From positions 1 through 24,314 of the forward strand of contig JAYWEM010000074.1 of NCBI GenBank assembly GCA_043779265.1: a stretch of DNA of 24,314 bases, written 5' to 3'. Both the position numbers and the translations under genes were made by a program. The stretch's first letter is position 1. The number at the start of each line of letters is the position of its first letter. Source of the DNA: a bacterium. GTDB taxonomy: Bacteria > Eisenbacteria > RBG-16-71-46. The notes beneath the pieces were generated by a model, which was given only the letters and a program-made list of their open reading frames with translations, was not told the DNA's origin and searched no databases. Shown here piece after piece: positions 1-21,306 of this stretch.

Positions 1-2
1 GC

Positions 3-467
3 CTCGCTGCGACGGTCGATCGTCGCGGTGCCACGGGCTCGTGGCAGCCGCTCGGGCCCGCGATGGCAACGGGCGCCGATGCGCTGACGTTCGAGGACCG
101 CGACGTCGTGCCGGGAGAGCGTCTCGCCTACCGACTCGGCTACCTCGAGGATGGCCAACTGAGGCACACCGCCGAGCACTGGCTCGACGTGCCGCGTGCC
201 GCGGTGCTCGCGCTCGCGGGGTTCGCGCCCAACCCCTCACCGCGCGGCGCCAGCGTCGCGTTCACGCTGCCCGACGACTCACCCGCCACGCTCGAGGTGC
301 ACGACATCGCCGGGCGGCTGGTGATGCGCCGCGACGTCGGCGCACTGGGAGCAGGACGCCATGTGGTCGCGTTCGGCTCCGACGCCCGCCTCGACTCCGG
401 CATGTACCTCATCCGCCTGAGGAGCGCCGCGGGGCAGCGCGTCGCGCGCGGCGTGGTGATGGACTGA
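3..467 (+). CDS. 3' end (partial, 5'-truncated by window) of a secreted protein with a C-terminal FlgD-Ig / T9SS-type-A-like sorting domain
   Basis: Frame open from the window edge to TGA at 465-467. C-terminus 'GFAPNPSPRGASVAFTLP..ATLEVHDIAGRLV..GRHVV..LDSGMYLIRL' matches the PNP...YD..GR.V...SG.Y pattern of this domain. Confidence 0.75.
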   Translation, partial: LAATVDRRGATGSWQPLGPAMATGADALTFEDRDVVPGERLAYRLGYLEDGQLRHTAEHWLDVPRAAVLALAGFAPNPSPRGASVAFTLPDDSPATLEVHDIAGRLVMRRDVGALGAGRHVVAFGSDARLDSGMYLIRLRSAAGQRVARGVVMD

Positions 468-496: not shown

Positions 497-1526
497 ACTG
501 GATAGGGGAGCGCGGGTTCGCCCCGCGCTTCCCCTCCCACACCACCGGACATGCGGGTCCGCATCCGGCGGTTCGATGGTTCAGCGGCCGACGAGGCGGG
601 GTACGCCGAGTCGGTCGAAGTACGAAGGTCGGCAGAGCGGTCTGAGTGCCTCCGTGTGCGGCCATCGCCCACCAGCGGCGAGCGTGGGCCGCGAGTGCGC
701 GGGTGTACACGTTCAGGTCGTCGGCGTGGCGAGCGAACTGGAGGCCCCGCCTCTCCAGTGCCTTGTCCACGTCATCCAACAGCACGTTGGCCAGCAGTGG
801 CGACAGTGGCCCGCCTTGCGGCGTGCCCTCGTGTCGTTCCACCGTCACGCCGTCGGCCAGCACTCCGGCCACGAGGTAGCGGCGGATCGGTCCCAGCACG
901 CGTCGGTCCGCGAGGCGCCGCGACAGTCGCTCCATCGGCACGTCGTGGTTCACCCGGTCGAAGAACTTCGCCAGGTCCACGTCGGCCACCCAGCGCAGCC
1001 CCGACTGGATGTGGCGATGCGCGGAACGCACCGCATCGTGCGCGCTGCGCCCCGGTCGGAAGCCGCGGCTGTGTTCGGAGAACGTCGGGTCGGACTGCGG
1101 CTGCAATGTCTGAAGAAGGCACTGCTGGATGAACCGGTCCAGCACCGTCGGGATGCCGAGTCGCCTCGTGCCCCCGCCGGGCTTGGGGATGTCGTGCCGC
1201 CTCACCGGTTGCGGCTGATAGGTGCCCGCGAGCAGTTGCTCCCGGATGCCATCCCAGTGCGTCCCCAGATACGTCGACAGTTCACCCACGGTCATCCCGT
1301 CCACGCCGGGACCGCCCCTCTTCTGCTTCACACGTTTCAGCGCCGCGAGCGCGTTCGTGCTGCTCGGCTCCGCCTCATATCCGGTTTCTATTCGTCGGCC
1401 CGTCGGTTCGTTTCCCGCTTCCTCCGGACGCTCCCTCGCGGTCACGCCCTTGCGGTTCCCCTGGGTCCCTGTGACCAGGTCCTCGGAGGACTTCCACCTC
1501 CAAGTCAGCGCCCGTGCTGGGCGTAC
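497..1526 (-). mobile_element. Group II intron, bacterial class C (IIC), internally deleted and degenerate
   Basis: Minus strand begins GTACGCCCAGCACGGGCG at 1526 (GUGYG-like IIC 5' end). Domain V GAACCGCCGGATGCGGACCCGCATGTCCGGTGGTG (about 574-540) has the IIC CGC triad. Domain VI GGGGAAGCGCGGGGCGAACCCGCGCTCCCCTATCCAGT ends about 497. An RT remnant lies between, and the insertion sits just downstream of a terminator hairpin. Confidence 0.9.
581..1365 (-). pseudogene. ltrA: Group II intron reverse transcriptase/maturase, pseudogene
   Basis: RT motifs ALKRVK..GGPGVDG, IPKPGGGTRRLGIPTVLDR, GFRPGRSAHDA, DLAKFFDRVNHD and GTPQGGPLSPLLAN are present. Catalytic YADD reads HADD (717-728). No native start. 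RT6/7 and most of the thumb are missing after NVYTR. A frameshift near 625 precedes the natural C-terminus SYFDRLGVPRLVGR* (stop 581-583). Confidence 0.85.
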
Positions 1527-1564
1527 GAACGAAGCGGCCGCCCGGCAGGAGCCGGACGGCCGCT
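1527..1564 (-). terminator. Rho-independent terminator-like hairpin of the FHA/kinase operon; IIC intron target site
   Basis: Minus strand AGCGGCCGTCCGGC-TCCT-GCCGGGCGGCCGCT (14-bp stem, one G-U) then TCGTTC and the intron 5' end; about 20 nt after the stop at 1584. Confidence 0.8.
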
Positions 1565-1583
1565 CGGAATCGGTGGAGTCCCC

Positions 1584-1949
1584 TCAGCGAGGGGCACCCG
1601 CGTCGATCCACGCGATGATGACCTCGGGCTCTCCGGCCTTGAGGAACTGGCGCATCGATCCGGTGCCTCCGACGTAGAACCGGATGTTGTTCCGATTCGC
1701 GAACACCACGTCGTAGTCACTCCAATCGGGGAGGGTGGTTCCCGCATGGTGACAACTGGTGCACCCGGTCGGCTGGGTGCCCTCGGAACGATCCGCGATC
1801 AGGTGCTGGATCGTGTTCGTGTACGTGACGGGCCCCGTGACCGGTGCGTTGAGGATCTTGTCCTCGCGGCCGCATGAAACCGTGGCCAGGGCGATGGGCA
1901 GGGCGACGAGCAGCGCGGCCGCCGTGCGACGCAAGTTGGTTCCGGGCAT
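1584..1949 (-). CDS. Monoheme c-type cytochrome lipoprotein (121 aa)
   Basis: GAGGAG SD before ATG 1949. Signal peptide with lipobox-like ATVS-C. Heme motif CTSCH, candidate distal Met (GSMR), and a 'VTY...IQ.LI...C..CH...IIAWIDAGAP' pattern. Confidence 0.75.
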   Translation of the reverse strand: MPGTNLRRTAAALLVALPIALATVSCGREDKILNAPVTGPVTYTNTIQHLIADRSEGTQPTGCTSCHHAGTTLPDWSDYDVVFANRNNIRFYVGGTGSMRQFLKAGEPEVIIAWIDAGAPR

Positions 1950-1980
1950 GTTCGACTCTCCTCGGTTCGCGGTACGCATG

Positions 1981-3048
1981 TCAGTAGCCGATGTAGGCGC
2001 GCACACCGATCTGCGCGGCCAGGCCTGAGAAGTCGACACTGCGATCACCCAGCAGCGACTGGGGGAAGGACTCGTAGACCTCGAAATCGTCGCGGGGCCA
2101 CTCGAGCGCCCCGGAGTTCGCGCGTCGGCCGGACACCCGGCCCGCCACGGCGAATCGCGGGCTCATGAACACCTCGGCCTCGGCTCCGACTTGGAAATAG
2201 AGCCCGATCGCCTCGCCGAGCAACTGCGTCGGGATGAGGCGGCCCGAGACGAGCGAGCGTTCGAACTCGAGCGTCGCTTCGCTGGAGACGAGCCCAGCGC
2301 CCGCGAACACCGAATAGTGGAGCTTGGGATTGTCCCCGAAGTGGTACAGCAGCGTCGCGACGACCGGCGTGGCCGTCGTCGTGTAGCTCGCATGGGAGTT
2401 GCGGACCTCGGGCAGCTTGTCGGAGGTGACGCTGCGCAGGCGCGACATCTCGAGCTCGAACGACCAGCGCGGCTTGAGCGGGAATCGCACGGAGATCCCG
2501 AACTCACCGCTGCCCTCGAAGTCCTCCGCCTCGGCGACGCCGGCGCTGCTCGCGAGGTCCACGAAGTCCTGATGCACTCCCTGCCCCTTGCCGAAGAAAG
2601 CGCCGATGCTCGACGGGTAGCGCTTGCCGGCCTCGACCTGCTCCGCCTTGAACTCGCGAAGCGCCAGATCGAACACCTCCATCTCATCGGGCGGCACCTG
2701 CAGCGCGTCGAGACGGAAGTTCGCGTCGCTCCTGAGCACGGCCTTGTGCAGTTCCTTCGCCTCCAGTCGGCGTCCGAGCTTGGCGAGACAGCGAGCGCGC
2801 AGGGCGCGGCCGGCATTGAGGTCATCGCCCGTGATGCGACCGTCGCGGAGCGCTTCCGCGAGCAGATTCGATGCCTCCTGGAACTTGGACTCCACGTAGA
2901 ACGCCCGAGCCTGCTCGAGCGCCGAGGACGTGACCATGGGTCTCGCTGCCGTCGCAGCGGGCTTCGAGCCCTGAGCCAGCGCGGCCGGTGGCGCCGCGCT
3001 CAGGGAGAGGGCACAGAGCGTGCCTGTGACCATGCGGCGGATGGACAT
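1981..3048 (-). CDS. Secreted TPR-like helical domain + outer-membrane beta-barrel protein (paralog 3)
   Basis: GAGGAGG SD, signal peptide, helical domain 'ALEQARAFY..ARCLAKLG..DANFRLDALQVPPDE', about 8 amphipathic beta-strands, C-terminal aromatic beta-signal GVRAYIGY. Confidence 0.8.
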   Translation of the reverse strand: MSIRRMVTGTLCALSLSAAPPAALAQGSKPAATAARPMVTSSALEQARAFYVESKFQEASNLLAEALRDGRITGDDLNAGRALRARCLAKLGRRLEAKELHKAVLRSDANFRLDALQVPPDEMEVFDLALREFKAEQVEAGKRYPSSIGAFFGKGQGVHQDFVDLASSAGVAEAEDFEGSGEFGISVRFPLKPRWSFELEMSRLRSVTSDKLPEVRNSHASYTTTATPVVATLLYHFGDNPKLHYSVFAGAGLVSSEATLEFERSLVSGRLIPTQLLGEAIGLYFQVGAEAEVFMSPRFAVAGRVSGRRANSGALEWPRDDFEVYESFPQSLLGDRSVDFSGLAAQIGVRAYIGY

Positions 3049-3069
3049 ATCGCCTCCTCAAGTGAGGGG

Positions 3070-3104
3070 AAAGCAACAGGCCGCCCCCAGTGGAGGGAGC
3101 GGCC
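3070..3104 (-). terminator. Intra-operon hairpin with U-rich tail (terminator or attenuator)
   Basis: Minus strand GGCCGCTCCC-TCCACT-GGGGGCGGCC followed by TGTTGCTTT, in the 70-bp gap between barrel paralogs 2 and 3. Confidence 0.55.
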
Positions 3105-3118
3105 CGTGGGGGAAGGGA

Positions 3119-4141
3119 TCAGTAACCGACGTAGCCGCGAACCCCGATCGAGAACGCGATCCCCGAGAAGTCGAGGTCACGATTGCCGATGCTCGTGCCG
3201 GGGGCGTACTGCGTGAAGTCGGAGCCGTCGAACATGTCCGTGGCCTTCGCGGATCGCAGGATCAGCCGCCCGTTGAGCGACAGCTTGGGATTCAGGAGGT
3301 ACTCCCCCTCGACACCGCCGTGCAGATAGGTCCCCACCTTCGAGTCGGTGACCCGGAGCGCGATGCTCGAGAAGAAGAGGAACTTGTCGGCGGCGTAGGC
3401 ATTGAGCATCGGGCCTCCACCGAGGAACGCACTCGCACGGAACTTCTCGGAATCGCGGATCAGCCAGTGCAGGCTCACGACCATCGGCAGCGCCGAAAGC
3501 TCGTACTCCGCCGTGCGGCCACCCGTGGCCGAGTCGCTGTTCGTGGCATTGAAGCGCTGCAGTTCGAGATCGAGCGACAGTCGCGGACGCAACGGGAAGC
3601 GGACGCCGATCCCGAACATGCCCTTGTTATCGAACGTCTCGGAGCCGCCGCCGAACGCGACGTACTCGCCGAAGTCCTTGTTGTCGCCGCTGCCGATGCC
3701 ATAGAAGAGTCCGATACTCGCCGGCAGCCGCTGGCTCGAGCGAAGCTGCTCGGCATCGAACAGACGCTTGGCCGCCTCATACGCGAACATCTCATCGGCC
3801 GGGACGCGTAGCGCGTCAGGACGATACAGCGGGTCCTGGCGCAGCAGGCTGAGGAACGTGCGCCGGGAGCCGGCCTCGTCACCAGCCTTGGTCTGGCAGC
3901 GAGCCAGTAACTCCTTGGCAGCGATCACATCACCGCCGATGACCCTCCCGGATGCGATGGCCTCCTGCAGCGCGGCCGCCGCTTCGGTGAACTGGCCGGA
4001 GTCATACAGGCGCTGGGCGGCAGCGAGATCCGATGCCTGCGCCTGCGCCGATCCCGGCGAGAGATACGTGGGTCCGCCGGCCAGCGGGGCGATCGATGCC
4101 CCGAGCACGAGCAGCAGGACCTTGAATGAATGGCACTTCAT
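3119..4141 (-). CDS. Secreted TPR-like helical domain + outer-membrane beta-barrel protein (paralog 2)
   Basis: Start reassigned to ATG 4141 (GGAGG SD, MKCHSFKVLLLVLG signal peptide). Same architecture as neighbours; ends GVRGYVGY. Confidence 0.8.
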   Translation of the reverse strand: MKCHSFKVLLLVLGASIAPLAGGPTYLSPGSAQAQASDLAAAQRLYDSGQFTEAAAALQEAIASGRVIGGDVIAAKELLARCQTKAGDEAGSRRTFLSLLRQDPLYRPDALRVPADEMFAYEAAKRLFDAEQLRSSQRLPASIGLFYGIGSGDNKDFGEYVAFGGGSETFDNKGMFGIGVRFPLRPRLSLDLELQRFNATNSDSATGGRTAEYELSALPMVVSLHWLIRDSEKFRASAFLGGGPMLNAYAADKFLFFSSIALRVTDSKVGTYLHGGVEGEYLLNPKLSLNGRLILRSAKATDMFDGSDFTQYAPGTSIGNRDLDFSGIAFSIGVRGYVGY

Positions 4142-4161
4142 GGGTCGCCTCCGTGTCGGGG

Positions 4162-5193
4162 TCAATAGCCGATGTACGCGCGCAGACCGATGGTCGCCGC
4201 GAATCCGCTGAAATCGATCTCGCGGCCCTTGAGCGTGGCCACGCCGTAGGCGTCGAACGAGAAGTCGTCGAGCAGCCCGCTCGCTTTGGCCGAGCGTCCC
4301 ATGAAGCGACCGCTGAGCGAGAGCTTCTGAGTCATCATGAGCTCGGTCTCGAACCCACCATGGAAGTACGAGCCGTTCTTCTGGCCGCTCACGTTCAGCG
4401 GAGAGCCGCCGAAGTCGCCGAATTCGATCTTGGCGATGCCCGTCAGGAGCGGTCCACCGCCCGCGAACGCGTACATGCGGAATCGCTGGCCGGTGAAGAT
4501 CGCCTGATACAGGCTGATCGAGAGTGGCAACGCCGACATCTCATAACGCGTGTCGTTGGGCGGCGCATTGCCGTCGACGTTCGTGGCCCGGAAGCGCTGG
4601 AGTTCGAGTTCGATCGACGTGCGGGGCCGAAGCGGGAAACGCACCGAACCGCCGAACTGGTTCTTGTTGTCGAACTTCTTCTCACCCCCACCGGCGACGA
4701 CGATCTCACCCATGTCCTCGTTGTCGCCCTTGCCGGTGCCGAATGAGAAGCCGAGGCTCGCCGGGGCGCGCTCGCCGGCCTGGACCTCCTCGGCCGTCAC
4801 CTCGCGCAGCGCCATCTGGAACACCTCCTGCTCGTCCGGAGGCACGGTCGCGTTGTCCGGCCGATAGCCCGTGAACTGCCGCAGCACGCCCTTGAAGGCC
4901 TCCTTGGCCTCGACGCGATTGCCGGCACGCACGAGGCAGCGTGCGATCAGTTCGCGAGCCGATCGCACGTCGCGACCGCTGATGCCACCACTCGCGAGGG
5001 CTGCTCTCAGCTGCGTCAGCGCCTCGGCGAAGCGCGATTCGTCATAGAGCGCCCGAGCCGCAGCGAGCGTCTCACTCGATGAACTCACCTGCGCGAGAGC
5101 GACTCCGCTCTGAACGGATGCCGCGGGTGACATCGCCAGCGTCAGCAACACGAGGCTCGCGATGGACACGCAGCGGGACCACGCGTGACGCAT
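4162..5193 (-). CDS. Secreted TPR-like helical domain + outer-membrane beta-barrel protein (paralog 1)
   Basis: AAGGAGG SD, signal peptide, helical domain 'LAAARALY..ARELIARCL..YRPDNATVPPDE', barrel strands 'VRFPLRPRTSIELELQRF'; ends GLRAYIGY. Confidence 0.8.
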   Translation of the reverse strand: MRHAWSRCVSIASLVLLTLAMSPAASVQSGVALAQVSSSSETLAAARALYDESRFAEALTQLRAALASGGISGRDVRSARELIARCLVRAGNRVEAKEAFKGVLRQFTGYRPDNATVPPDEQEVFQMALREVTAEEVQAGERAPASLGFSFGTGKGDNEDMGEIVVAGGGEKKFDNKNQFGGSVRFPLRPRTSIELELQRFRATNVDGNAPPNDTRYEMSALPLSISLYQAIFTGQRFRMYAFAGGGPLLTGIAKIEFGDFGGSPLNVSGQKNGSYFHGGFETELMMTQKLSLSGRFMGRSAKASGLLDDFSFDAYGVATLKGREIDFSGFAATIGLRAYIGY

Positions 5194-5235
5194 GACTCCC
5201 TCCTTGGGGTGTGCCCGGGGATGCCGGGCGGGACG

Positions 5236-7653
5236 TCACTTCTTCTGCTTGAGCTTGAACGCCGTACGCGCTTCCTGACCGGCGCGGACATCCACGGACT
5301 GGGGTCCGCCGTCAACGGTGAAGCCCTCGCGGACGAGACTGATGGTATGCGAACCGGGCAGCACACCCTCGAGCACCGCCGGGGTCGTCTTGCCCGTCCG
5401 TTCGCCGTTCAGGTAGATCTCCGCCCAGCCGCCCGAGCTGCTCACTGCGATCGAGCCCGAGGCCGCAGCGAGGAAGTCATGCGAGACCTCCTTGCGTTCT
5501 CCGGAGTCGAGGTCGACGGTGATGTCCTTGTTGCCGAGCGAGGGGTGGGTCAGACGGATCTTGTGGGTGCCGGGCCGGAGCTGGACCGTGAACTGCTTCT
5601 TGTTCTGATCCTTGGTCTCGCCATCGACGATGAAGTCCTGGGCGAACGGCGAGACGCGAACCACCAGCGTCGCCGGCGCGCTTCCCGTGGAGGGAGTGGG
5701 CGTGACGGGCGGCGGCGGCGCCTTCGCGGCACGGGCGCTGTCGCGCGAGGCGATGGCCGAGCGAGCGGCGTCGTAGATCCGGCGATCGAGCCCGGTGAGG
5801 CCCGCGGGCTCCGGAGCGAAGCGTGAATCCCGTGCGATCAGATCCTCGTAGGTGCGCTGTGCGTCCCTGGTGCGATTCGCCCCCGCGAATGCGCGCGCCA
5901 GCAGCTCCCGGCCGGTGCGCTGATCGCGCCGTCCGAGCGCGGTGCCCTTGAGGGCGGTCTCGAGCGTGGCGATGGCCTCGGCATGATTGCCCGAGGTGAG
6001 CGAGGCTCGCGCCGCCGCGAGGGGATCGTCGGTCGACTCTGTGCCCGGCGTGGGTGCAGCGGTCGGAGGCGTCAAGTTCGCGGCGCTCGTGTCCACGATG
6101 GCCGGGATGGGATCGGACGTGGCGCCCGGATCGAGCTCGGTGGGGGCCTTGCGGCCCATGCTGAAGACGGCGAACGCGATCACGGCGATGACGAGGATGC
6201 TCGCACCCATCAGGACCGGGTTCAGCCCGCCCTTCTTGGCGGTCGGCTTGGCTGGCGCGGCGGCGCGAGGCGGCGGCGATGCGGCAGCGGCCTTGGGTGA
6301 AGTCGCAGCAGGCGGTTTCGCCGGGGGCGGCGGCGCCTTCGCGACCGGCGTCGCAGGCGTCGCCGACGCAGCGGACGCGGCAGCCATCTGCTCCGGCGTC
6401 ATCACCATCGTGTGATCCTCGGGGCGCGGCGCAGGCGGAGTCGCCGGGGCCCCCGGGGCGCTGGCCGATGGGGGCATCGAAGCTGCCGCCGCCTGCTCGG
6501 GCGTCATCACCATCGTCTGGTCGCCGACTGCGGTCGCGGGCGGAGCGCCTGCTGTCGGCGCAGCCGGCACGTGCGGCACCTGCGACTGCAACGTCTCGCG
6601 CTCGCGCTCCAGCTTCTTCACGTGGTCACGCGCGATGGTGTTGTCCGGGTCGAGATGGAGCACGCGACGGAACTCGAGCAGCGCGTCGTCGATCTTGCCG
6701 CGGCCCATGTTCTCGAAGAAGAGTCCCTGGTCGAGATGGCGGGCGAGCCGCTTGGATCTCCAGCGATCGCCGACTGTCTGCGGATCGACGGCGTACTCGC
6801 GCAGAAGGTCCTTGCCGCGCAGCAGGCTCAGTTGCTCGATCACATCCTCGAACTCCTGACGCACCGCCGCGATCGAGGCGTAGCGCTTGCCGACATCCTT
6901 CTGCAGCATGCCTCGAAGGATGCGTGAGAGTTCCTCGGGCACCAGCGGATTGAAGTGCGTCACGTCGAGCGGCTCGACCGTGAGGATGGAGCGGAGCACG
7001 GTGGAGTAGCTATCGCCCGAGAACGGCCGCTGGCCGCCCAGCAATTCGTAGGCGAGCACACCGGTCGAGAAGATGTCCGAGCGCTCATCGACGACCTCGC
7101 CCGTCGCCTGCTCGGGCGACATGTAGGCGGGGGTCCCCATGACCGAACCCACCATCGTCATCTGAGTCGAAGTCTCACTGCCCGAACGCGCCAGACCGAA
7201 GTCCATGATCTTGATGGTGCCGTCGGGCGTGAGCATGACGTTCGCGGGCTTGATGTCGCGATGGATGATGCGATGCCCGTGCGCGTGCTCGAGGCCGCGG
7301 CAGACGTCGCGGATCATGAGCAGCGCCATCTCGATCGGTGGTGCGCCGTGGGCATCGAGCCACTTGCGCAGATCCATGCCCTCGACGAACTCCATCGCGA
7401 TGTAGGCCACGTCCTCGTGCAGCCCGCAGTCGATGACCTGGATGATGTTCTCGTGCCGCATCATCGCCGCGGCGCGAGCCTCGCGCTCGAAACGCTGCAC
7501 CAGCTTCTCGTCGTCCGCCAGATGCGCGTGGATGATCTTGACCACGACGGGTCGCTGCAGGGACTTCTGGACGGCCAGGAACACCGACGCCATACCGCCG
7601 ACGCCGATCTTCTCCTTGAGCTCGAAGGCCCCGAAGTCCTTGTTCATCGCCAT
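5236..7653 (-). CDS. Hanks-type membrane Ser/Thr kinase: kinase - TPR - Pro/Ala linker - TM - helical domain - 2x PEGA-like
   Basis: IGVGGMASV, VVVK, HRDIKPAN, DFGLAR, GTPAYMSPEQ, SDIFS. TPR 'IDDALLEFRRVLHLDPDN'. TM 'VLMGASILVIAVIAFAVFSM'. PEGA-like 'AEIYLNGERTGKTTP..PGSHTISL'. Confidence 0.95.
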   Translation of the reverse strand: MAMNKDFGAFELKEKIGVGGMASVFLAVQKSLQRPVVVKIIHAHLADDEKLVQRFEREARAAAMMRHENIIQVIDCGLHEDVAYIAMEFVEGMDLRKWLDAHGAPPIEMALLMIRDVCRGLEHAHGHRIIHRDIKPANVMLTPDGTIKIMDFGLARSGSETSTQMTMVGSVMGTPAYMSPEQATGEVVDERSDIFSTGVLAYELLGGQRPFSGDSYSTVLRSILTVEPLDVTHFNPLVPEELSRILRGMLQKDVGKRYASIAAVRQEFEDVIEQLSLLRGKDLLREYAVDPQTVGDRWRSKRLARHLDQGLFFENMGRGKIDDALLEFRRVLHLDPDNTIARDHVKKLERERETLQSQVPHVPAAPTAGAPPATAVGDQTMVMTPEQAAAASMPPSASAPGAPATPPAPRPEDHTMVMTPEQMAAASAASATPATPVAKAPPPPAKPPAATSPKAAAASPPPRAAAPAKPTAKKGGLNPVLMGASILVIAVIAFAVFSMGRKAPTELDPGATSDPIPAIVDTSAANLTPPTAAPTPGTESTDDPLAAARASLTSGNHAEAIATLETALKGTALGRRDQRTGRELLARAFAGANRTRDAQRTYEDLIARDSRFAPEPAGLTGLDRRIYDAARSAIASRDSARAAKAPPPPVTPTPSTGSAPATLVVRVSPFAQDFIVDGETKDQNKKQFTVQLRPGTHKIRLTHPSLGNKDITVDLDSGERKEVSHDFLAAASGSIAVSSSGGWAEIYLNGERTGKTTPAVLEGVLPGSHTISLVREGFTVDGGPQSVDVRAGQEARTAFKLKQKK
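6388..6522 (-). repeat. Two 30-nt direct repeats in the kinase linker encoding D(Q/H)TMVMTPEQ
   Basis: 6388-6417 ctgctccggcgtcatcaccatcgtgtgatc versus 6493-6522 ctgctcgggcgtcatcaccatcgtctggtc (27/30 identical). Confidence 0.85.
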
Positions 7654-8726
7654 GCGACGAGGCTCTCCGCTTGCTGGGTCGAAGTTGCGCTGGAGGCCGC
7701 ATCGGACTCGGCTTCACCGCGCATCCGTCCGAGCATGAACCACACGATCCCGGCGATGACGAGCAGCAGGATGACGAGTGCGACGATCAGCAGTTGCAGC
7801 GTTCGAGTACGGGCCTTGCTCGAAACAGGCGCCGACGGAGCGTCAGCGCGCGGCTGGGGCGGTGCCGCGGAGACGCGTGCGCGAGGCGCTTCGTGAGCCT
7901 CATAACCGCCGTCGCCGCCGTCGCCACCCTCGATGCGGGCCAGCGCGACGGTGATGTTGTCCGGGCCGCCCCGCTCATTGGCGAGGGCGATCAGCGTTCG
8001 GCAGGCGCGATCGAGCGAGCCATCCGAGGCGAGCTTGGCGATCTCCTCATCACTCAGCTGCCCGTGCAGACCATCGGAACAGACCAGGACCGTGTCGCCC
8101 GGCAGCAGCGGCTCGCCCATGCGGTCGGCGTCGATATCGACCACGGCGCCCACGCCGACGCTGCGGGTGACCACGTTGCGGCGCGGGTCGTGGCGGGCAT
8201 CCTCGGCGGTGATCTGACCGCGGGCGACCAACTGCGCCACGAGCGAGTGGTCGCTCGTGATCTGCGTCATGCGGCCCGAACGGACGAGATACGCGCGCGA
8301 GTCCCCGACATGCGCGAACGTGAGCGTGTCGCCGAGGATCGCCACGGCCGTGCACGTGGTGCCCATGCCCTGGAGGTCCTGGCGCGTGCGGCTGTGCTCG
8401 TGCACCTCGGTGTTGGCGGTGTCGACGGCGCGGTGGAGCGCCGCCTGGGCGTCGCCCGAGGTGTCCTCCTCGAACTCGCGCACGACGGCCTCGACGGCCA
8501 TGCGGCTCGCAACTTCGCCGGCGTTGCTGCCGCCCATGCCGTCACAGACCACGAGCAGGGTGTCGGCCGCGTGCGAGCGTCCGCTCCCGTCAGAGACCCA
8601 GAGAGCGTAGCTGTCCTCGTTACCGTGCCGTCTGCGCCCCACATCGGTCGCTGCGGCCGTGGCCGTACGCAAGTGCGTGGAACTCACGTCGCTCCTCGAG
8701 AGGCCGGGGGATCGCCCGGGCGTCAT
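7644..8726 (-). CDS. PP2C/PPM-family Ser/Thr phosphatase (Stp1/PstP-like) with C-terminal TM anchor
   Basis: TDVGRRR..NEDS, VVCDGMGG..AGEVAS, GMGTT, AHVGDSRAY, DHS, CSDGL, GGPDNIT; TM 'LLIVALVILLLVIAGIVWFML'. Overlaps both neighbours. Confidence 0.93.
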   Translation of the reverse strand: MTPGRSPGLSRSDVSSTHLRTATAAATDVGRRRHGNEDSYALWVSDGSGRSHAADTLLVVCDGMGGSNAGEVASRMAVEAVVREFEEDTSGDAQAALHRAVDTANTEVHEHSRTRQDLQGMGTTCTAVAILGDTLTFAHVGDSRAYLVRSGRMTQITSDHSLVAQLVARGQITAEDARHDPRRNVVTRSVGVGAVVDIDADRMGEPLLPGDTVLVCSDGLHGQLSDEEIAKLASDGSLDRACRTLIALANERGGPDNITVALARIEGGDGGDGGYEAHEAPRARVSAAPPQPRADAPSAPVSSKARTRTLQLLIVALVILLLVIAGIVWFMLGRMRGEAESDAASSATSTQQAESLVAWR

Positions 8727-10024
8727 CCGCGCGCTTCGTAGATCAGATGCACCTCAGGGCCCAGGCTGATGCGATCCCCGTCCGCGAGAACACGGCGCGA
8801 GATCCGCTCGCCATTGATGTAAGTGCCATTCTCCGAATTCAGGTCCACCAAATCAACTTGCCCCCCGCCCTTGGGTTCCAGAAGAGCGTGGCTTCGAGAG
8901 ACATGGGCCTCAGGCAACACGATGTCGTTGCCCGCAGCTCCCCCGAGTGAGACCGGAAGAGCCAGAAGCTCATACCATACCCCGTCATCGTCGTCTCCAT
9001 CATGCACCAACAGCCCTCTTTGGCGCCGCCGCATCAGGAACCAAGCCGCCGCCGCTGCGATCAGGGCCACTGCGCCGAGCAGCCACGGCAGCGGCGAGCG
9101 CCACCACGGATCGGGAAGCGCTTCTTTCGTCTGGTAGGTCGTCTCGGCGCGCCGGGCCGATCCGCCCTGAGCAGCGGTCACGATCAATTGGTGCGTCGTC
9201 GCCTTCGAGTCCCACCCCGGCGCCCGGAACGAGAGCACCCATCGCTCTCGGCCACGCTCGACTTGAGCCGTGAGCGCCGAAGCGAGTTCCGTGGGCGACG
9301 GGACTCGGCCGTAGGCCCCGGCGGTGTGCACGGCAAGTCGCTGCAACCGCTCACTCTCGCTTGACGACCCGGCATCCCCGACCACCGTCACGAGGACGGG
9401 CGTCAGCCGCGAACGACTGCGCGCCAGAGCGAGCACATCGAGCAGGGCTCTGGAGCTTCCGCCGTCGGCCCCTCTCGTCACGAGCATCACCACCGCGCCA
9501 TGATCCTCGGCGGCGCGCGATGCTTGGCGAACCGCGTCATGGAGTGCGTCGTAGATCCGCGGCGTCTCCGAGTCGGCGAGCGACTCGAGCCGCTCCGCCA
9601 GCTTCTCGGCGTCCTTCTGGTCGGCCTCGAGCGCCCGCACGCGACCGCCGGCCGAGAGGATGCGCAGTCGGTCGCCCGGCCGCAGGCTGCGCGCCACCTC
9701 GCGGACCGCGTCCTGGATCCCCGCGAGTGAGTTGCCCCGCAGCATCTGGCCGTCCAACACCAGCGTCAGGGTCGCCCGCTCGTAGTGGCGCAGCGTGGAG
9801 GTGGCCACGAGGTCGACCACCGACGCGCCATCGAGCTGGACCTCGAACCCGTTCTCCAGCGCATCGACCGGTGTGCCGGCATCGTCGAGCACCGAGACGA
9901 GCACGCGGTGCTGGTCGCGTCCCCTGACGCGCACATCGTCGATCGTGAGCGTGGCGGGGACGGCGAGGACGCACGTGGGAACAAGCGCGAGCACGGCGGC
10001 GAGGAGGAACGATGGGCCTCTCAC
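8723..10024 (-). CDS. Signal peptide - vWA-like domain - TM - cytoplasmic FHA protein
   Basis: GTGA overlap with the upstream stop. vWA-like order 'LTLVLDG..TPRIYDAL..VVMLVTRG..LQRLAVHTAGAY'. TM 'WLLGAVALIAAAAAWFLMRRR'. FHA 'VSRSHA..VDLNSENGTYING'. Confidence 0.8.
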   Translation of the reverse strand: MRGPSFLLAAVLALVPTCVLAVPATLTIDDVRVRGRDQHRVLVSVLDDAGTPVDALENGFEVQLDGASVVDLVATSTLRHYERATLTLVLDGQMLRGNSLAGIQDAVREVARSLRPGDRLRILSAGGRVRALEADQKDAEKLAERLESLADSETPRIYDALHDAVRQASRAAEDHGAVVMLVTRGADGGSSRALLDVLALARSRSRLTPVLVTVVGDAGSSSESERLQRLAVHTAGAYGRVPSPTELASALTAQVERGRERWVLSFRAPGWDSKATTHQLIVTAAQGGSARRAETTYQTKEALPDPWWRSPLPWLLGAVALIAAAAAWFLMRRRQRGLLVHDGDDDDGVWYELLALPVSLGGAAGNDIVLPEAHVSRSHALLEPKGGGQVDLVDLNSENGTYINGERISRRVLADGDRISLGPEVHLIYEARG

Positions 10025-11814
10025 GGCTTCTCGAACCCGAACCGCTCGGGCGCCTCGGCGATGACGCGAACCGCGAAGATCTTGGGCACGTAGTTCTGGG
10101 TCTCCTCGGGTAACAGCCGATTCTGCACGAGGTACCAGAACCGCTGCGGGCCCTTCAGCATCGGGTCGGAGATCCGCTGCTTGGCGCGATCGATCGCATT
10201 GTGCCCGCGGTTGTAGCTCGCCAACACGAGCATGAAGTACTCGGGGCCCTGGTCGCGCAGCATCATGGCGATGTACTCGGCCGCCGCGCCCGTCGAGGGT
10301 TCGATGTGGGTGCGCTCATCGCGCGAGCGGTCGCCCAGATCCACCTTGAGGCCGAAGTCACGCGCAGTGCCCGGCATGAGTTGCCACAGGCCGAGCGCCC
10401 CGACCGGACTGATCTGCATCGGGTCGAGCCCGCTCTCCACCCAGGCGACATAGCAGAACGACTCCGGCAGGTGACGCGAGGCGAGCAGGTCGCGGATCCG
10501 AGGCTGGATGCTGCGAGAACGCTCGAGCATCTTGCGCATCGAACCCGGGAACCGCTGGTACTGGTCGACGAACTGCCACACCGCCTGCACGAAGCCATCG
10601 GGCACCGACTCCGGATCCTGTCCCAGTTCGACCGCATAGCGCCGGATCTGCAGGTCGACGTACTCGCGATTGGTGAGCGAGGCGATGCGCGCCGCCGAGG
10701 ACTGCAGCGTCTCGCTCGCCAGGGCGCGGGCGAAGTCGAACTCGCGCAACCCATCCGGGAGTTCGCGTGCGATGTCGCGGAACACGGTGCCCGGCTCCTT
10801 GAGCGAGGCCCCGCGTGGTGCGAGTTCGGAGAGCAGCAGCAGGTCGGCGGCGTACAGCAGATGCGCGCGCGCCATCTCGGCCTCACCCATGCGGGCGGCC
10901 TCGATCCCCTTCTCGGTGCTGGCGAGCGCCTGCGCATGCACTTGCGCGGCGAGACCGGCGACCTGGCGCTGCTCCTGCATGCCACGCGAGACATGGAAGG
11001 CGCCCCAGATGAGCAGCGAGACGACGAGCGCGGCGGCCGCGAGTGCGATGATCCGGCCCCAAGCCGGGACGATGCGGCGCTCGACCCGATAGGCGACATC
11101 GCCGAAGGAGACGGTGTCCCCCGGCCGAACCGGAGCGCGCAGCACGGGGTCCCCGTTCAATGTGGTGCCATTGCTGCTCTTGAGGTCGGTGACGAACAGC
11201 CGCTCGTCCTCGCGATCGAGTCGGGCGTGCAGCCGCGAGACGCTCTCGTCCTCGAGTACGAGTCCGGCCGACGGATCGCGCCCGACGGTCGTGATCGGGG
11301 CGCTGAGCGTCACGACTCGCGCACTGCCGCCGCGCGGCGTGAGCGTCCAGGCCTCCTGCGTGAATGCACTCCGCGAGGCCGGGCGCCCGGCTGCGACAGG
11401 CTCGGAAGCGACAGGGGAATCGTCGGTTCGGGCAGCACCGCGACCATCGGAGGCGGCTCCGCCTCGCTGCACTCGTCCACCAGCCGCTCGCGGCGCGTCA
11501 TCACCTCGTGCGACCTCCGTCGCCACGGCCGAGACCAGCTCGAGGCCGACATCGGGGCCCAGGCGCGCGCGCTGCCCGGGCTGCAATCGTTGCTGTTGGA
11601 TCGGCGCGTCATCGATGAACGTGCCATTGCGGCTGCCGAGATCCCGCAGGATCCACACCCCGCGCTCGCGCACCAACTCCGCATGACGACGTGAGATACC
11701 GGCGTCTTCGAGCACGACATCGCACTCGGGATCGCGCCCGAAGACGAAGCCGTCGGAATCGAGATCGAGATCGAATCGCCGACCTCCCTCGTCGATGCTC
11801 AGCCGATCGCTCAT
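10021..11814 (-). CDS. 2xFHA - TM - MltD-like lytic transglycosylase (SLT) fusion
   Basis: FHA1 'FGRDP..ISRRHA..DLGSRNGT', FHA2 'VGRDP..VSRLHA..DLKSSNGT'. TM 'IIALAAAALVVSLLIWGAF'. SLT motifs 'VESG', 'GALGLWQLMPGTA', 'LASYNRG', 'ETQNYVPKI'. Confidence 0.9.
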   Translation of the reverse strand: MSDRLSIDEGGRRFDLDLDSDGFVFGRDPECDVVLEDAGISRRHAELVRERGVWILRDLGSRNGTFIDDAPIQQQRLQPGQRARLGPDVGLELVSAVATEVARGDDAPRAAGGRVQRGGAASDGRGAARTDDSPVASEPVAAGRPASRSAFTQEAWTLTPRGGSARVVTLSAPITTVGRDPSAGLVLEDESVSRLHARLDREDERLFVTDLKSSNGTTLNGDPVLRAPVRPGDTVSFGDVAYRVERRIVPAWGRIIALAAAALVVSLLIWGAFHVSRGMQEQRQVAGLAAQVHAQALASTEKGIEAARMGEAEMARAHLLYAADLLLLSELAPRGASLKEPGTVFRDIARELPDGLREFDFARALASETLQSSAARIASLTNREYVDLQIRRYAVELGQDPESVPDGFVQAVWQFVDQYQRFPGSMRKMLERSRSIQPRIRDLLASRHLPESFCYVAWVESGLDPMQISPVGALGLWQLMPGTARDFGLKVDLGDRSRDERTHIEPSTGAAAEYIAMMLRDQGPEYFMLVLASYNRGHNAIDRAKQRISDPMLKGPQRFWYLVQNRLLPEETQNYVPKIFAVRVIAEAPERFGFEKP

Positions 11815-12335
11815 GCCGGATTCCTCAGGCGCAGACGCACTCGGAACGCCGAGGCTCCGGCCCGCAGCGTGTCACCCTCCTGCAGGATGTGGCGCTCGAC
11901 CCGCTGAGTCGCGATGAACGTGCCGTTGGTCGAATCGAGATCGATGAGGATCGCGGCGGCCACGCCGACCTCGAGCCGGAAGTGGTCTCGCGACAGGCCG
12001 GGATCGGGGATGGCGAGCAACGAGAAGCTCGCCTCCTCCTTGGGACCGCGACCCACTTTCCAGCGGCCGGGCTCGACATCGAATCGCTGCGGGACGAGCG
12101 GACCCGAGATCGCCTCGAGCCGCAATACCCAGTCGCTCTCGGGCTCGGCGGCGGGCGGCGGTGGGCCGACGGGCGGTGCCCCGAGGATGACCGTCATCTC
12201 GGTCATCTCCTTGGCCAAGGCAGCCCGGCCGCTGGCCCGAACCCACCCACAGCGAGTGCAGTTCGCCGCCTGCTTCGGGATCTCATGCCCCTCGGGGCAG
12301 TGCTTCACCACCTTGGGTCCGGGTCGCAGGAACAT
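11811..12335 (-). CDS. Small Zn-ribbon + FHA domain protein (first gene of operon)
   Basis: CPEGH..CTRC N-terminus; FHA 'VGRG..LSRDHF..DLDSTNGT'; ATGA overlap with the next gene. Confidence 0.85.
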   Translation of the reverse strand: MFLRPGPKVVKHCPEGHEIPKQAANCTRCGWVRASGRAALAKEMTEMTVILGAPPVGPPPPAAEPESDWVLRLEAISGPLVPQRFDVEPGRWKVGRGPKEEASFSLLAIPDPGLSRDHFRLEVGVAAAILIDLDSTNGTFIATQRVERHILQEGDTLRAGASAFRVRLRLRNPA

Positions 12336-12341
12336 GGGCGC

Positions 12342-12350
12342 AAGCTACCA
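12342..12350 (-). promoter_or_regulatory. Extended -10 element, candidate leaderless promoter of the operon
   Basis: Minus strand TGgTAGCTT, 6 nt upstream of ATG 12335; no adjacent SD. Confidence 0.5.
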
Positions 12351-12476
12351 CCCACCCCATCCCCATCCCAATGTGGCGCCGGGGGCCTCCGCCCGCAGCG
12401 GACCCGAGCCCGCGAAGCTCGTGTAACCTGAGCGCGCAAGCGATCGAACTCCAAACCGAATCGAAAGGATACGAAC

Positions 12477-12905
12477 ATGAAGAGCACGTCCACAGCCATC
12501 TGGGAAGGCACGCTGAAGGAGGGCAAGGGGGTCGTCTCCGCTGCCAACGGCGCGTTCAGCGAGACACCGTACTCGTTCGGCAAGCGGTTCGAGGGTGCCA
12601 CCGGCCCCGGCACGACTCCCGAGGAGATGATCGCTGCAGCGCACGCCGCCTGCTTCGCGATGGCGACCTCGGGCGAACTCGGCAAGGCGGGTTTCACGCC
12701 GACGCGGCTGGAAGCCAGCGCGACCGTCACGCTCGAGCCTGTCGACGGCAAGCCCACGGTGAGCAAGTCGCACCTGGTGCTCAAGGCGACCGTGCCCGGC
12801 ATCGACCAAGCGAAGTTCGACGAGATCGTGGCCGGCTCCAAGGCCGGCTGCCCGATCTCACGGCTGCTCAAGGCCGAGATCACGCTCGACGCCCGACTCG
12901 TCTGA
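12477..12905 (+). CDS. osmC: OsmC-family peroxiredoxin
   Basis: WEGTLKEGKG, YSFGKRFE, PEEMIAAAHAACF, KAGCPIS (both conserved Cys). AAAGGA SD; TAACCT -10-like box at 12424. Confidence 0.93.
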   Translation: MKSTSTAIWEGTLKEGKGVVSAANGAFSETPYSFGKRFEGATGPGTTPEEMIAAAHAACFAMATSGELGKAGFTPTRLEASATVTLEPVDGKPTVSKSHLVLKATVPGIDQAKFDEIVAGSKAGCPISRLLKAEITLDARLV

Positions 12906-12977: not shown

Positions 12978-15623
12978 TCAGCTGTCCGCTGGCCCCGGCC
13001 CCGGCGCCTGCCTCGTGCTCAGGCGCTGCACCAGACTCGCAAGGCTGAAGGGCTTTCCGATGAATTCGCAGTCTGGCGGGAGCATCGCGTCCTTCCCGCC
13101 CGGACGGTCATTGTAGCCGGACATCAGGATGATCCGCATCTTCGGGAAGCGCGCGCGCAGGTCATGAGCCAGATCGATCCCGCTCATGCCGGGCAGCACG
13201 ATGTCGCTCAGCAGCACATCGAACGCGGCCTCGCGCTGTGCGATCTCGATCGCCTCTCGCGGACTGCCCGCCACGGTCACGTCGTGGCCCTCCAAGCCGA
13301 TCGCGCGCTGAAGCAGCTCTCGCACCTTGACCTCGTCCTCGACGATCAGGATCCGAAGGTTCTCGGACGATCGATCGGTCGTCGGGCCAGCCATCGGGAT
13401 GGCCACGGGCTCCGGTCGCGAGAGCGGCTCGCTGCAGCCGGGAAGATGCACGTTGAACGTGCTCCCCAGGCCGAGTTCGCTTCGAACCGAGAGTCGGCCA
13501 CCTGCCTGGGTGACGATCCCGTAGCACGAGGCAAGGCCAAGCCCCGTCCCCTCGCCCTTCGGCTTGGTCGAGAAGAACGGTTCGAAGAGTCGCGCCTGCA
13601 CCTCCTCATCCATGCCGGTGCCGGTGTCGCTCACGGCGATCAGCACGCCAGGCGGCTCGATCTCCGCGGGCGTTTCGCCGCCCGCGGCATGCGCAGCGGC
13701 TTCATCTTCGCGGATCTCGATCGTGAGGACGCCGCCCTTGGGCATGGCGTCACGCGCGTTGACGGCGAGATTCAGGAGCACCTGCTCGAGTTGCACCGGG
13801 TCCATCAGGACGACAGCGGCGCGCTCCGGACGACTGAGTTGCAACTGCGCGCGACCCTGGAGTAGGTGCTTCAGCATCACCTCCATGCCGCCCACGACTG
13901 CCGCGGCATCAATCACCCTCGGTTCGATCGGCTGCTTCCTCGCAAAGGCGAGCAGCTGACGTGTGAGTGCTGCAGCCCGCTTGGAGCCATCCAGAATCGC
14001 GCGCGCTTCGTCGGCCTCGACGCTGCCGGGCGCGAGTTGCCGGGCGAGCCGCTCCGCATTTCCCATCGTCACCATGAGCAGATTGTTGAAATCATGAGCG
14101 ATGCCGCCGGCCAATCGGCCGATGCTCTCGAGTTTCTGCGACTGCAGGAACTGATGCTCGAGACGCCTGATCATCGTCAGATCACGGGCGACGGTGGAGA
14201 GGAACTCGACCTCCCCGTGCTGGTCCCGATGCGCGAGCACGACCTGCGAGACCGGGATCTCGCGGCCATCTCCAGCTCGAAGAATCGACTCACCGTGCCA
14301 ACTGCCGTCGCGGAGTGCCGCAGGGATCGCCTCCTCGAAGATCATGCGGCCCGACTCGTCCGGGTGGAGTTCCGAAATTCTCGTGGAACTCAGGTCCTCA
14401 TGGCGCGAGCGCCCGATCATCTGGCGGCCAGCCGGATTGATATACAACACTCGGCCATTGGGATCGGAGATGCCGATGAAGTCAGGGGTCGCATCGAGCA
14501 TCGAGAGCAGCCGTTTCTGGATCGCCTCGGCCACGGATCGCTCCCGGATCATGGCGGTGAAGGAGCGGAACAGCAGTGCCACCTCGCGATTCCCGGGTTC
14601 GGGCAGGGGAGCGGCGAAACCGCTCACGCCATAGTCGTGGAGCACCTTGCTGAGAGTCTCGACAGGACGCGCGACGTGATCCGCCAGGATCAGGCCGATG
14701 ATGAACACCGCCAGCATGAGCAGGCCCATCAAGAGCCACATCGGCGCAAGGATGCCGCGGACGAGCGCATCGACCTGAGCCCTCGGCACGACGACGACGA
14801 GCATGAGCTCGACTTCACGGAGTCTCGCGGAAGCCCCGATCCACCTCTCACTGTGGCGTGTGCCGTACCACGGCTCGGCGGCTCCGAGATGCGCGCCTGC
14901 GAAGAGGGAGTCCAACCGCCAGAATCCATCCGGCTCCTCCGCGCTGTCCGAGAGCCCCGCCGAGCGGGCGAGCACGCGACCCTCCTTGTCGAACAGGGCG
15001 ACCTCCCAGGCTTGCGGGAGATGCGCATCGGTGATCGACGAGTAGAGCGCCGGGTTGCGGTCCTGCGCACCGAGCGATGCAACGAGCACCCCGAGGATGA
15101 CGCCGCGGTCATCACGGACGGGGGTCCCCGCGGAGAAACTGCGGTTCCCCGCCGTCGAGATACGAGGAGCGCCGAAGTGCGTGCGGCCGGTGGCCATCGG
15201 GATCCTGAAGTAGTCGCGGTCTGACCGATCGGAGCCTTGGCGCTCGGGCTTGGTGGGGCGCAGGAGGATGCGGCCCCGGGCGTCGAGCAGCGTGTAGTCG
15301 ATGAAGTGCGAACTCGTGGCGTCCATCACGCGCAGGAGCGCATCCGCGCGCTCGGGGTTCATGCGCCGGATGTCCGCGATCCGCGCGGCCGCCTCGAGCT
15401 CGGTCCGGGCTGACCTGAATTCCCGGTCGATGGTCGTCGCGACGGCGGTCGCGCGCGCCACCAGGCGTTGCAACTCGCGCGCCTCGAGCTCGTGCCGAAG
15501 CCTCGGCTGCAGCACGAGCAGGAATGCCAGCGTGATCGCGAGCTGCAGCAGCAGCACGATGCCGGTGATCTGGGAGCGGAGCGACCACGGCATGCTGGCC
15601 GTCTTCTCTGGCAGTGGGCTCAT
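12978..15623 (-). CDS. Hybrid sensor histidine kinase: TM - Cache-like - TM - HAMP - PAS - HisKA - HATPase - REC
   Basis: Cache-like 'SDRDYFR'; PAS 'YINPAG'; H-box AGGIAHDFNNLL; N-box NLAVNARDAM; DTGTGM, FEPFFSTK, GTGLGL; receiver 'ILIVEDE..LSDIVLPGMSG..KPF'. Confidence 0.93.
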   Translation of the reverse strand: MSPLPEKTASMPWSLRSQITGIVLLLQLAITLAFLLVLQPRLRHELEARELQRLVARATAVATTIDREFRSARTELEAAARIADIRRMNPERADALLRVMDATSSHFIDYTLLDARGRILLRPTKPERQGSDRSDRDYFRIPMATGRTHFGAPRISTAGNRSFSAGTPVRDDRGVILGVLVASLGAQDRNPALYSSITDAHLPQAWEVALFDKEGRVLARSAGLSDSAEEPDGFWRLDSLFAGAHLGAAEPWYGTRHSERWIGASARLREVELMLVVVVPRAQVDALVRGILAPMWLLMGLLMLAVFIIGLILADHVARPVETLSKVLHDYGVSGFAAPLPEPGNREVALLFRSFTAMIRERSVAEAIQKRLLSMLDATPDFIGISDPNGRVLYINPAGRQMIGRSRHEDLSSTRISELHPDESGRMIFEEAIPAALRDGSWHGESILRAGDGREIPVSQVVLAHRDQHGEVEFLSTVARDLTMIRRLEHQFLQSQKLESIGRLAGGIAHDFNNLLMVTMGNAERLARQLAPGSVEADEARAILDGSKRAAALTRQLLAFARKQPIEPRVIDAAAVVGGMEVMLKHLLQGRAQLQLSRPERAAVVLMDPVQLEQVLLNLAVNARDAMPKGGVLTIEIREDEAAAHAAGGETPAEIEPPGVLIAVSDTGTGMDEEVQARLFEPFFSTKPKGEGTGLGLASCYGIVTQAGGRLSVRSELGLGSTFNVHLPGCSEPLSRPEPVAIPMAGPTTDRSSENLRILIVEDEVKVRELLQRAIGLEGHDVTVAGSPREAIEIAQREAAFDVLLSDIVLPGMSGIDLAHDLRARFPKMRIILMSGYNDRPGGKDAMLPPDCEFIGKPFSLASLVQRLSTRQAPGPGPADS

Positions 15624-15624
15624 G

Positions 15625-16716: not shown

Positions 16717-16827
16717 CCGGTCGGAGTCCTCGCATCGTGTGCTCACCGCATCACGACCGGGCGGATCATGATGAGTTCAAGAACTCTGCGTGCAGATCGC
16801 ATCCTACAGCCTGGAGTCCCAACTGGC

Positions 16828-17910: not shown

Positions 17911-17938
17911 CGCATCCGTCTTGGAGCCCGCTCCGCGC

Positions 17939-18808: not shown

Positions 18809-18809
18809 C

Positions 18810-19007: not shown

Positions 19008-19018
19008 CGCGCGGACTC

Positions 19019-20030: not shown

Positions 20031-20036
20031 GGCAAC

Positions 20037-21287: not shown

Positions 21288-21306
21288 CCCACGTCTGCAT
21301 CGCATC

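Follow-up and report, generated by a model that had tools for sequence, protein, structure and literature searches.

A stretch of 24,314 nucleotides from a bacterium of the Eisenbacteria lineage (GenBank assembly GCA_043779265.1, contig JAYWEM010000074.1; here called the window) carries nine open reading frames that run in one direction on the minus strand, from position 12335 down to 1584. We named them g1 to g9. The junctions from g1 to g9 (-4, -4, -4, -10, 42, 20, 70 and 31 bp) agree throughout with the overlaps and gaps given in a preliminary description of this DNA, and the nine genes are probably co-transcribed. In one family of Candidatus Eisenbacteria, this block serves a type VI secretion system (T6SS) as its regulatory and accessory arm; the named relatives are Ca. 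Eisenbacteria. Its genes, and the signals at its two ends, are as follows.

12340 to 12352, minus strand: extended -10-like box, candidate promoter, a few bases 5' of the g1 ATG, where no Shine-Dalgarno sequence was seen
11811 to 12335, minus strand: g1, soluble protein with a zinc-ribbon (CxxGH...CxxC), a linker with threonine (Thr) motifs and an atypical FHA domain
10021 to 11814, minus strand: g2, two FHA domains, a transmembrane (TM) segment (residues 255-273), a helical region and an MltD-like lytic transglycosylase; predicted reader of threonine-phosphorylated TssL (pThr-TssL)
8723 to 10024, minus strand: g3, signal peptide, periplasmic vWA-like domain, TM segment (312-330) and cytoplasmic FHA domain
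7644 to 8726, minus strand: g4, PP2C phosphatase with a C-terminal TM segment; analogue of PppA/TagG
5236 to 7653, minus strand: g5, Hanks-type kinase with cytoplasmic tetratricopeptide repeat (TPR)-like helices, a Pro/Ala linker with Thr motifs, a TM segment (480-498), and a periplasmic TPR with two PEGA-type domains; analogue of PpkA/TagE
4162 to 5193, minus strand: g6, signal peptide, TPR and eight-stranded OmpA-fold barrel, class A
3119 to 4141, minus strand: g7, TPR-barrel, class B, 44% identical to g6
1981 to 3048, minus strand: g8, TPR-barrel, class C
1584 to 1949, minus strand: g9, monoheme cytochrome c lipoprotein with lipobox Cys26, CxxCH at 63-67 and Met99
1533 to 1567, minus strand: terminator-like hairpin after g9 (z = -4.1)

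Domains and conserved residues of the nine proteins

Pfam and NCBIfam models identify an FHA domain in g1, two FHA domains and a soluble lytic transglycosylase (SLT) domain in g2, an FHA domain and a weak vWA domain in g3, PP2C in g4, and kinase, TPR and PEGA domains in g5. By hydropathy, g2, g4 and g5 each have a single TM segment, and g3 has one in addition to its signal peptide. The domain assignments of the preliminary description (four FHA domains, SLT, vWA, PP2C and serine/threonine kinase) are thereby borne out, although the vWA match lies below the Pfam cut-off and only the g2 FHA domains keep all residues that bind phosphothreonine (pThr).

In both FHA domains of g2, the pThr-binding Arg, Ser, Arg, His and Asn are kept in 78-80 of 80 aligned rows, and among g1-g3 these two domains alone have the full set. 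The g3 FHA lacks the first pThr-binding Arg in all 20 rows, and the g1 FHA has Lys at that position in 9 of 15. The transglycosylase of g2 matches PF01464 above its cut-off; the catalytic Glu460 is present in 80/80 rows, and E460, G475, W477, Q478, Y534, N535 and G537 are all invariant. The metal ion-dependent adhesion site (DxSxS...T...D) of the g3 vWA-like domain is degenerate, with only its first Asp retained (20/20 rows). A Thr motif in the linker between the two g2 FHA domains was considered and rejected, as it occurs in 2/80 rows only.

The phosphatase scores 261 bits against NF033484 (cut-off 230); PP2C is missing from several related loci. K39, HRDxKPxN and DFG of the kinase are invariant in 24 rows. 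Hanks-kinase matches number about 30 in the own genome, against just two for PP2C; of its six FHA domains, four belong to this operon. Elsewhere in the genome (contig C1, 37270-42453), a separate FHA protein, a kinase and two genes that read as PilT-like from their sequence possibly form a second phospho-module, for type IV pili.

An AlphaFold model of g6, built from a 100-sequence alignment, has a mean confidence (pLDDT) of 90.9 and consists of a TPR followed by eight strands; OmpA, OmpW and OprF are among its top Foldseek matches. The three barrel classes are stable across genomes (mostly 50-65% identity within a class and ~35-45% between classes). In g9, Cys26, CxxCH and Met99 are invariant in 43 aligned homologues, its Atlas neighbours are cytochrome c clusters, and cytochrome c assembly genes are present in the own genome. 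The outer-membrane barrels and heme lipoprotein of the preliminary description thus stand. Wherever the gene upstream of g9 is visible, it is a class C barrel.

The TPR of the barrels is of the same type as that in the periplasmic part of the kinase (E 5e-10). Proteins with a signal peptide and a hydrophobic tail, which replace or accompany barrels, carry this TPR too, and further proteins have it fused to PEGA domains. Plasmids searched with the TPR-tail protein yielded nothing useful. At four loci (L004 14137-17607, L009 2754-6082, L025 11987-15250 and L045 4018-7373), adjoining one or two kinases, the place of the barrels is taken by a hydrophobic-tailed TPR protein, one that weakly matches the N-terminus of Bdellovibrio MAT fibres and one with a FlgD-Ig C-terminal domain. 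Tandem barrel-only relatives of g6-g8, lacking the TPR, are found at L048 8963-11272 and L049 2255-3666, in family f3 genomes that have no TssC match. Here and below, G denotes a genome, L a locus and C a contig of the own genome, which is G000; the window contig is C74.

The preliminary description had the operon run from one promoter to one terminator. The terminator is supported by the strong fold of the hairpin 3' of g9, though a simple consensus scan missed it. That scan for promoters and terminators found nothing at either operon end and no full sigma-70 site; the candidate promoter is the extended -10-like box. Such a box lies 5-9 nt 5' of the g1 start in only 6/12 loci, versus 131/2716 in the background. 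The first gene, g1, is probably leaderless.

Association with the T6SS in related genomes

We surveyed 206 genomes of the phylum, 89 of which make up the window's family, f1. An FHA-SLT orthologue was defined as a match with E < 1e-70; 20 weaker matches were dropped, comprising 18 SLT-only proteins from other families and two FHA remnants. The genomes are kin and their counts are not independent, so we read the counts as patterns rather than as statistical tests, and Fisher tests were not relied on.

At locus L072, the genes run g2-g3-g4-g5-g6-g7-g8-g9-tssJ-K-L-M, in the order of the window, with tssJ 145 bp after g9, and G016 has g1-g5, g8, g9 and tssJ. The gene directly 3' of g9 is tssJ in six loci (G016, G105, L069, L072, L075 and L076). 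NCBIfam identifies the downstream genes in G016, G019, G014 and L013 as tssJ, K, L and M, with all matches above their cut-offs except the L013 tssJ (29.9 versus 31.6 bits). Ten metagenome loci carry g9, some of them duplicates of genome loci; eight reach tssJ, one contains tssK/M fragments and one ends earlier.

Co-occurrence agrees with this gene order. TssC is found in 52/206 genomes, 27 of them in family f1. The FHA-SLT orthologue occurs in 25 genomes, all of family f1, and 22 of these have TssC; two of the other three have TssF and the last, which is 66% complete, has neither, so that 24/25 carry T6SS core genes. The eight genomes with g9 all have TssC or TssF. Five family f1 genomes have TssC but no detectable FHA-SLT. 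Two genomes of the same genus that lack a T6SS core match (82% and 58% complete) contain decayed FHA pieces and an apparently intact PP2C (L011 2320-4090; L012 3864-5598), likely remnants of a module that has decayed while retaining its phosphatase. The module is found with two types of tail, whose TssC shares either 87-88% or 41-43% identity with the own copy; a target in the membrane complex, and not in the tail, fits this pattern. Together, these data make us highly confident that the module is tied to the T6SS.

Nine T6SS loci from other families showed no FHA domain within the fetched flanks (up to ~19 kb on each side of tssC); three have a kinase, and one of the three also a PP2C. At L064 4005-10557, L053 13509-16783 and L056 1738-4922, also of other families, T6SS-linked kinases are followed by CsgG-like or TPR periplasmic proteins, not barrels, which are possibly an alternative sensor cassette. 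Genes preceding tssJ at L050 9919-10605 and L054 9096-9710 encode the TagH C-terminal domain (PF20232), with no FHA detected.

The T6SS of the own genome

The preliminary description had remarked that no T6SS core genes appear beside the operon. This is correct for the window but not for the genome, where the core is complete on three other contigs. C124 carries tssJ, K and the start of L; C3, which overlaps C124 by 99 bp, carries the rest of tssL followed by M, A, B, C, hcp, tagJ, E, F, G and clpV; and C110 carries the end of clpV, vgrG and PAAR. A vgrG island at L030 1686-8746 contains a TPR-methyltransferase, a Tox-PAAR-like protein and a ketoacyl-synthase-like gene, and similar genes occur in several relatives.

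The module itself is likely to lie ~8 kb from tssJ across an assembly gap, judging from the sequences at two contig ends. At the end of C124 lies the truncated N-terminal portion of a repeat protein (L028 7094-8411, plus strand), and the window starts with a cut C-terminus (1-467, plus strand), resembling FlgD-Ig and type IX secretion domains, of the same protein family. In paralogues, these two parts lie 0-200 bp apart. If the end of C124 were joined to the start of C74, g9 would come to lie upstream of tssJ, oriented as in the conserved arrangement and with ~8 kb inserted. Such an insertion would be tolerable because tssJ has its own sigma-70-like promoter, a feature of 16/20 loci compared with 5.5% of upstream regions in general. 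There is no overlap between the two contig ends and no bridging contig among those listed; in two DNA runs, contigs stop at both of these ends, where the depth is about doubled, and none listed bridges C74 and C124. The repeat-protein family has many paralogues in the own genome, where a 1321-aa kelch/galactose-oxidase-like member precedes tssJ, and other cut genes of the family at other contig ends weaken the link further.

The preliminary description had named a match to a known T6SS or Tad accessory module as evidence against a new system. The neighbourhood search gives that match for the T6SS. A Tad system is rejected, since the Flp pilin domain PF04964 was not found in the genome (one Pfam query; 92% complete) and the loci contain neither a Flp pilin nor Tad genes.

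A conserved threonine in TssL and a proposed mechanism

TssL proteins at the module loci have an unstructured N-terminal extension with the motif E-T-[VIM]-[IV]. For scoring we used [DEK]-T-[VIMT]-[VIML], a pattern defined after inspecting these sequences. It is found in 17/17 FHA-SLT records (15 genome loci and two metagenome loci), whereas other families have it in 0/7 TssL; its background frequency is 2.3% of windows.

Natural losses of the module are informative about its target. Four of the five family genomes with TssC but no FHA-SLT also lack the TssL motif. In G128, g2 has been cleanly deleted, such that g1 overlaps g3, and TssL reads Ser at the motif Thr; G132, which has TssC and no FHA-SLT, likewise reads Ser. 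G008 and G012 keep kinase and PP2C, with no FHA match and no TssL motif. At L071, the SLT is lost, the tandem FHA is fused to g3 and the TssL Thr is kept. From these losses and this retention, we conclude that the TssL threonine tracks the tandem FHA.

Our proposal starts from what is observed: the gene order into tssJKLM, the co-occurrence with the T6SS, the intact catalytic and pThr-binding residues, and the paired loss of the TssL Thr and the tandem FHA. The membrane kinase g5 would phosphorylate the conserved Thr in the N-terminal tail of TssL; the tandem FHA of g2 would bind pThr-TssL; and the docked g2 would bring its transglycosylase, opening the peptidoglycan where TssJLM crosses the wall. 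The phosphatase g4 would reverse the mark on TssL. We infer the phosphorylation, the FHA-TssL contact and its reversal by PP2C from sequence. The atypical FHA proteins g1 and g3 may be adaptors or substrates. The TPR-OmpA barrels, with class C paired with the heme lipoprotein, would act as the input at the outer membrane, switching on the kinase by way of its periplasmic TPR and PEGA domains and replacing the TagQRST or RtkS inputs of other species.

We consider it probable that the operon is a trigger of T6SS assembly, running from kinase through TssL to wall opening by the FHA-SLT protein. The step from TssL to FHA-SLT, taken by itself, we favor slightly less firmly. Sensing by the barrels is the weakest step, argued by analogy, and we put it forward as a tentative and rather doubtful idea.

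Contrary evidence and alternative explanations

A number of observations count against this proposal. The 25 of 52 TssC-positive genomes that lie outside family f1 all lack an FHA-SLT orthologue, and T6SS loci persist without the SLT in G128, L071, G008 and G012, so the SLT is not essential for every T6SS of the family. G162 keeps the TssL motif, and FHA-SLT was not found in it (85% complete). To these we add the definition of the scored motif after inspection, the kinship of the genomes and the lack of any listed contig that bridges C74 and C124. With regard to a dedicated role for the barrels, their number per locus varies from 0 to 3; a kinase with a two-barrel cassette stands alone in G016, ~330 kb from the T6SS; G027 has two related kinases and no TssC match; and three proteins found at the TslA position, discussed below, match the barrel TPR with less than 6 bits.

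The alternative that survives best is that two modules share the operon: g1-g5 would regulate the T6SS, while the TPR-barrels and the cytochrome c would be a general kinase-partner or surface cassette riding along. We judge it somewhat unlikely, and it is compatible with the core of the explanation that we prefer. The variable barrel number and the isolated cassette of G016 speak for it, as do the TPR protein with a hydrophobic tail that takes the place of barrels in G019 and G020 and the related barrel-only proteins in family f3 genomes without a TssC match. Against it, full TPR-barrels are found in 18 genomes, all of family f1 and 16 of them TssC-positive, and the same TPR type is fused into the periplasmic part of the kinase.

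A second alternative accepts a T6SS phospho-switch but assigns its parts differently. The reader of pThr-TssL would be g1 or g3, or the main target would be the kinase or g1 linker, and the SLT would act after firing, in wall repair, or constitutively. Thr-hydrophobic motifs similar to that of TssL do occur in the g1 and kinase linkers, and the loss of the SLT from some T6SS loci fits an enzyme that is not a recruited opener. However, the FHA domains of g1 and g3 lack or weaken the pThr-binding Arg. In G128, the TssL Thr is gone although g1 and g3 are still present, whereas both the tandem FHA and the Thr persist at L071. We regard this assignment as distinctly improbable.

The preliminary description proposed a self-contained circuit for envelope sensing and wall remodelling, independent of the T6SS. 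The candidate promoter and terminator of the operon, the separate conserved sigma-70-like promoter of tssJ and the lack of T6SS genes in the window would agree with this. In relatives, tssJ-K-L-M lie directly downstream, and the own genome has a complete T6SS; the co-occurrence in 24/25 genomes, the loss paired with that of the TssL Thr and the decay where no T6SS is matched argue in the same direction, and independence is very unlikely. What holds from that description is a conserved trans-envelope pThr circuit, predicted to remodel peptidoglycan locally for an apparatus that spans the envelope. Finally, an immunity array of tandem barrels or an anti-phage kinase, suggested by the three tandem paralogues and by matches of the kinase domain to the PADLOC PD-T4-6 and MAD6 models, is scarcely credible given that the barrel classes are stable across genomes with no adjacent effector gene, and that the PADLOC matches concern mostly the generic kinase domain, with one weak match for PP2C and none for the other seven proteins.

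Comparison with known systems

Contrary to the preliminary description, which recognized no described system, the operon matches a known type of T6SS accessory module, that of PpkA/PppA/Fha.

The closest parallel in mechanism is Agrobacterium tumefaciens, where PpkA phosphorylates Thr14 of TssL in DLPpTVVEI and Fha binds that peptide (PMC3953482). Both systems have a T6SS-linked membrane kinase with a PP2C, a TssL with an N-terminal Thr followed by hydrophobic residues (DLPpTVVEI compared with E-T-[VIM]-[IV]) and an FHA reader with conserved Arg and Ser. Where Agrobacterium has a soluble TagH/Fha, the reader predicted here is bound to the membrane and joins a tandem FHA to a lytic transglycosylase. 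TssL is of the short type without a periplasmic peptidoglycan-binding domain, and the family f1 loci that were examined showed no TagF in the interval from tssM to tssA.

The H1-T6SS of Pseudomonas aeruginosa (PpkA/TagE, PppA/TagG, Fha1/TagH and TagQRST) also has a kinase, a PP2C and an FHA protein beside its T6SS genes. The own-genome tail resembles it in having a short TssA and TagJ, and a periplasmic vWA domain is carried by PpkA (PMC3224232). Here, by contrast, a TM-FHA protein distinct from the kinase bears the vWA-like domain, and the periplasmic part of the kinase consists of TPR and PEGA domains. The FHA proteins reach only 19.9 and 75.4 bits on the TagH model TIGR03354 (cut-off 120), and the Pfam and NCBIfam scan did not find the T6SS_FHA_C domain in g1-g3. 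TagQRST- or RtkS-type activators are absent from the nine genes and none was recognized in related loci; this search did not extend to other parts of the genome. On the TagH and TagQRST/RtkS criteria, the operon is thus a variant of the PpkA/PppA/Fha pathway and not a member of it.

MltE of enteroaggregative Escherichia coli and TagX of Acinetobacter remodel the wall for the T6SS membrane complex (PMC13584744) and, as is predicted for g2, are peptidoglycan-cutting enzymes that serve membrane-complex assembly. MltE, however, is a housekeeping enzyme encoded elsewhere, TagX is an endopeptidase, and neither is described with a phospho-reader in the available part of that source (PMC13584744).

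The barrels recall Acinetobacter, where a TPR-like periplasmic protein (TslA) and OmpA place T6SS assembly at contact sites (PMC9251886), in a setting without Fha, PpkA and PppA in A. baylyi (PMC9251886). As for TslA plus OmpA and for TagM1 of Burkholderia, a periplasmic TPR-like protein and an OmpA-type barrel are encoded upstream of tssBC in the same direction, with a signal peptide preceding the TPR. TPR and barrel form one polypeptide here, and no sequence homology was detected, making this an analogy only. The full-length barrels have an isoelectric point of 6.1-8.5 (the TslA/TagM1-like criterion being > 8.7), and most of the TPR domains are acidic. Membership of TssQ_fam (NF038027) was rejected: 60/100 members match weakly, with a best E of 9e-7, and the own copies score 16-19 bits against a cut-off of 65 bits. 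Nor does the Ralstonia protein found at the TslA position belong to TssQ_fam.

A vWA, kinase, phosphatase (PPM) and FHA toolkit also accompanies a type VII secretion system, T7SSc (PMC11217815); its vWA is cytoplasmic, unlike that of g3, and the available text describes no SLT, barrels or cytochrome (PMC11217815). The vWA-kinase-FHA-PP2C operon of Deinococcus has the same toolkit, with no SLT, barrels or cytochrome in the portion of its description available. The T6SS accessory genes in Table 1 of a 2026 review include no FHA-transglycosylase, TPR-barrel or cytochrome (PMC13584744), and no description of this module was found in the open PMC and bioRxiv literature. As far as these searches reach, the tandem FHA-SLT, the TPR-barrels and the cytochrome c are new to the T6SS parts list.

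Flanking regions

Outside the module, one further feature lies between it and the probable link to tssJ.

497 to 1527, minus strand: group II intron remnant with a truncated reverse transcriptase/maturase and domain V/VI at 497-573

The remnant begins just behind the g9 hairpin, and short copies of its ends are found at five other contig ends of the own genome. The spot just behind a terminator is the usual site of IIC introns (PMC1702495). On the other side, an osmC peroxiredoxin (12477-12905, plus strand) is divergent from g1, here and in several relatives, an arrangement of possible interest should the heme lipoprotein sense oxidants. The remainder of the window (12978-24314) is ordinary, with a hybrid histidine kinase, a putative porin, a MutY-like glycosylase, a transglutaminase-like TPR protein, a DUF3798 lipoprotein and an ABC ATPase-like gene.

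Significance

The operon is not a free-standing new signalling system. Its interest lies in T6SS regulation, where the mechanism by which PpkA is activated is given as unknown (PMC9251886) and how activated TagH/Fha drives assembly as unclear (PMC13584744). In the available portions of the cited papers, wall remodelling by MltE and TagX and threonine phosphorylation are treated as separate accessories. Here, a single polypeptide couples a phospho-reader to a wall-cutting enzyme, and natural deletions point to its target.

The most far-reaching version of our proposal is an outside-in aiming circuit. TPR-OmpA barrels, with the roles of TslA and OmpA fused and one of them paired with a heme lipoprotein, would sense contact or redox state and switch on the kinase; the kinase would mark TssL; and one protein would both read the mark and cut the wall. 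We think it unlikely that the circuit is right in full, but if it were, phosphorylation would directly set where the envelope is breached. The module also brings to light a T6SS with post-translational control in an uncultured phylum, in which TssC is found in 52/206 genomes, and it offers a direct test of the idea that phosphorylation licenses the local opening of peptidoglycan.

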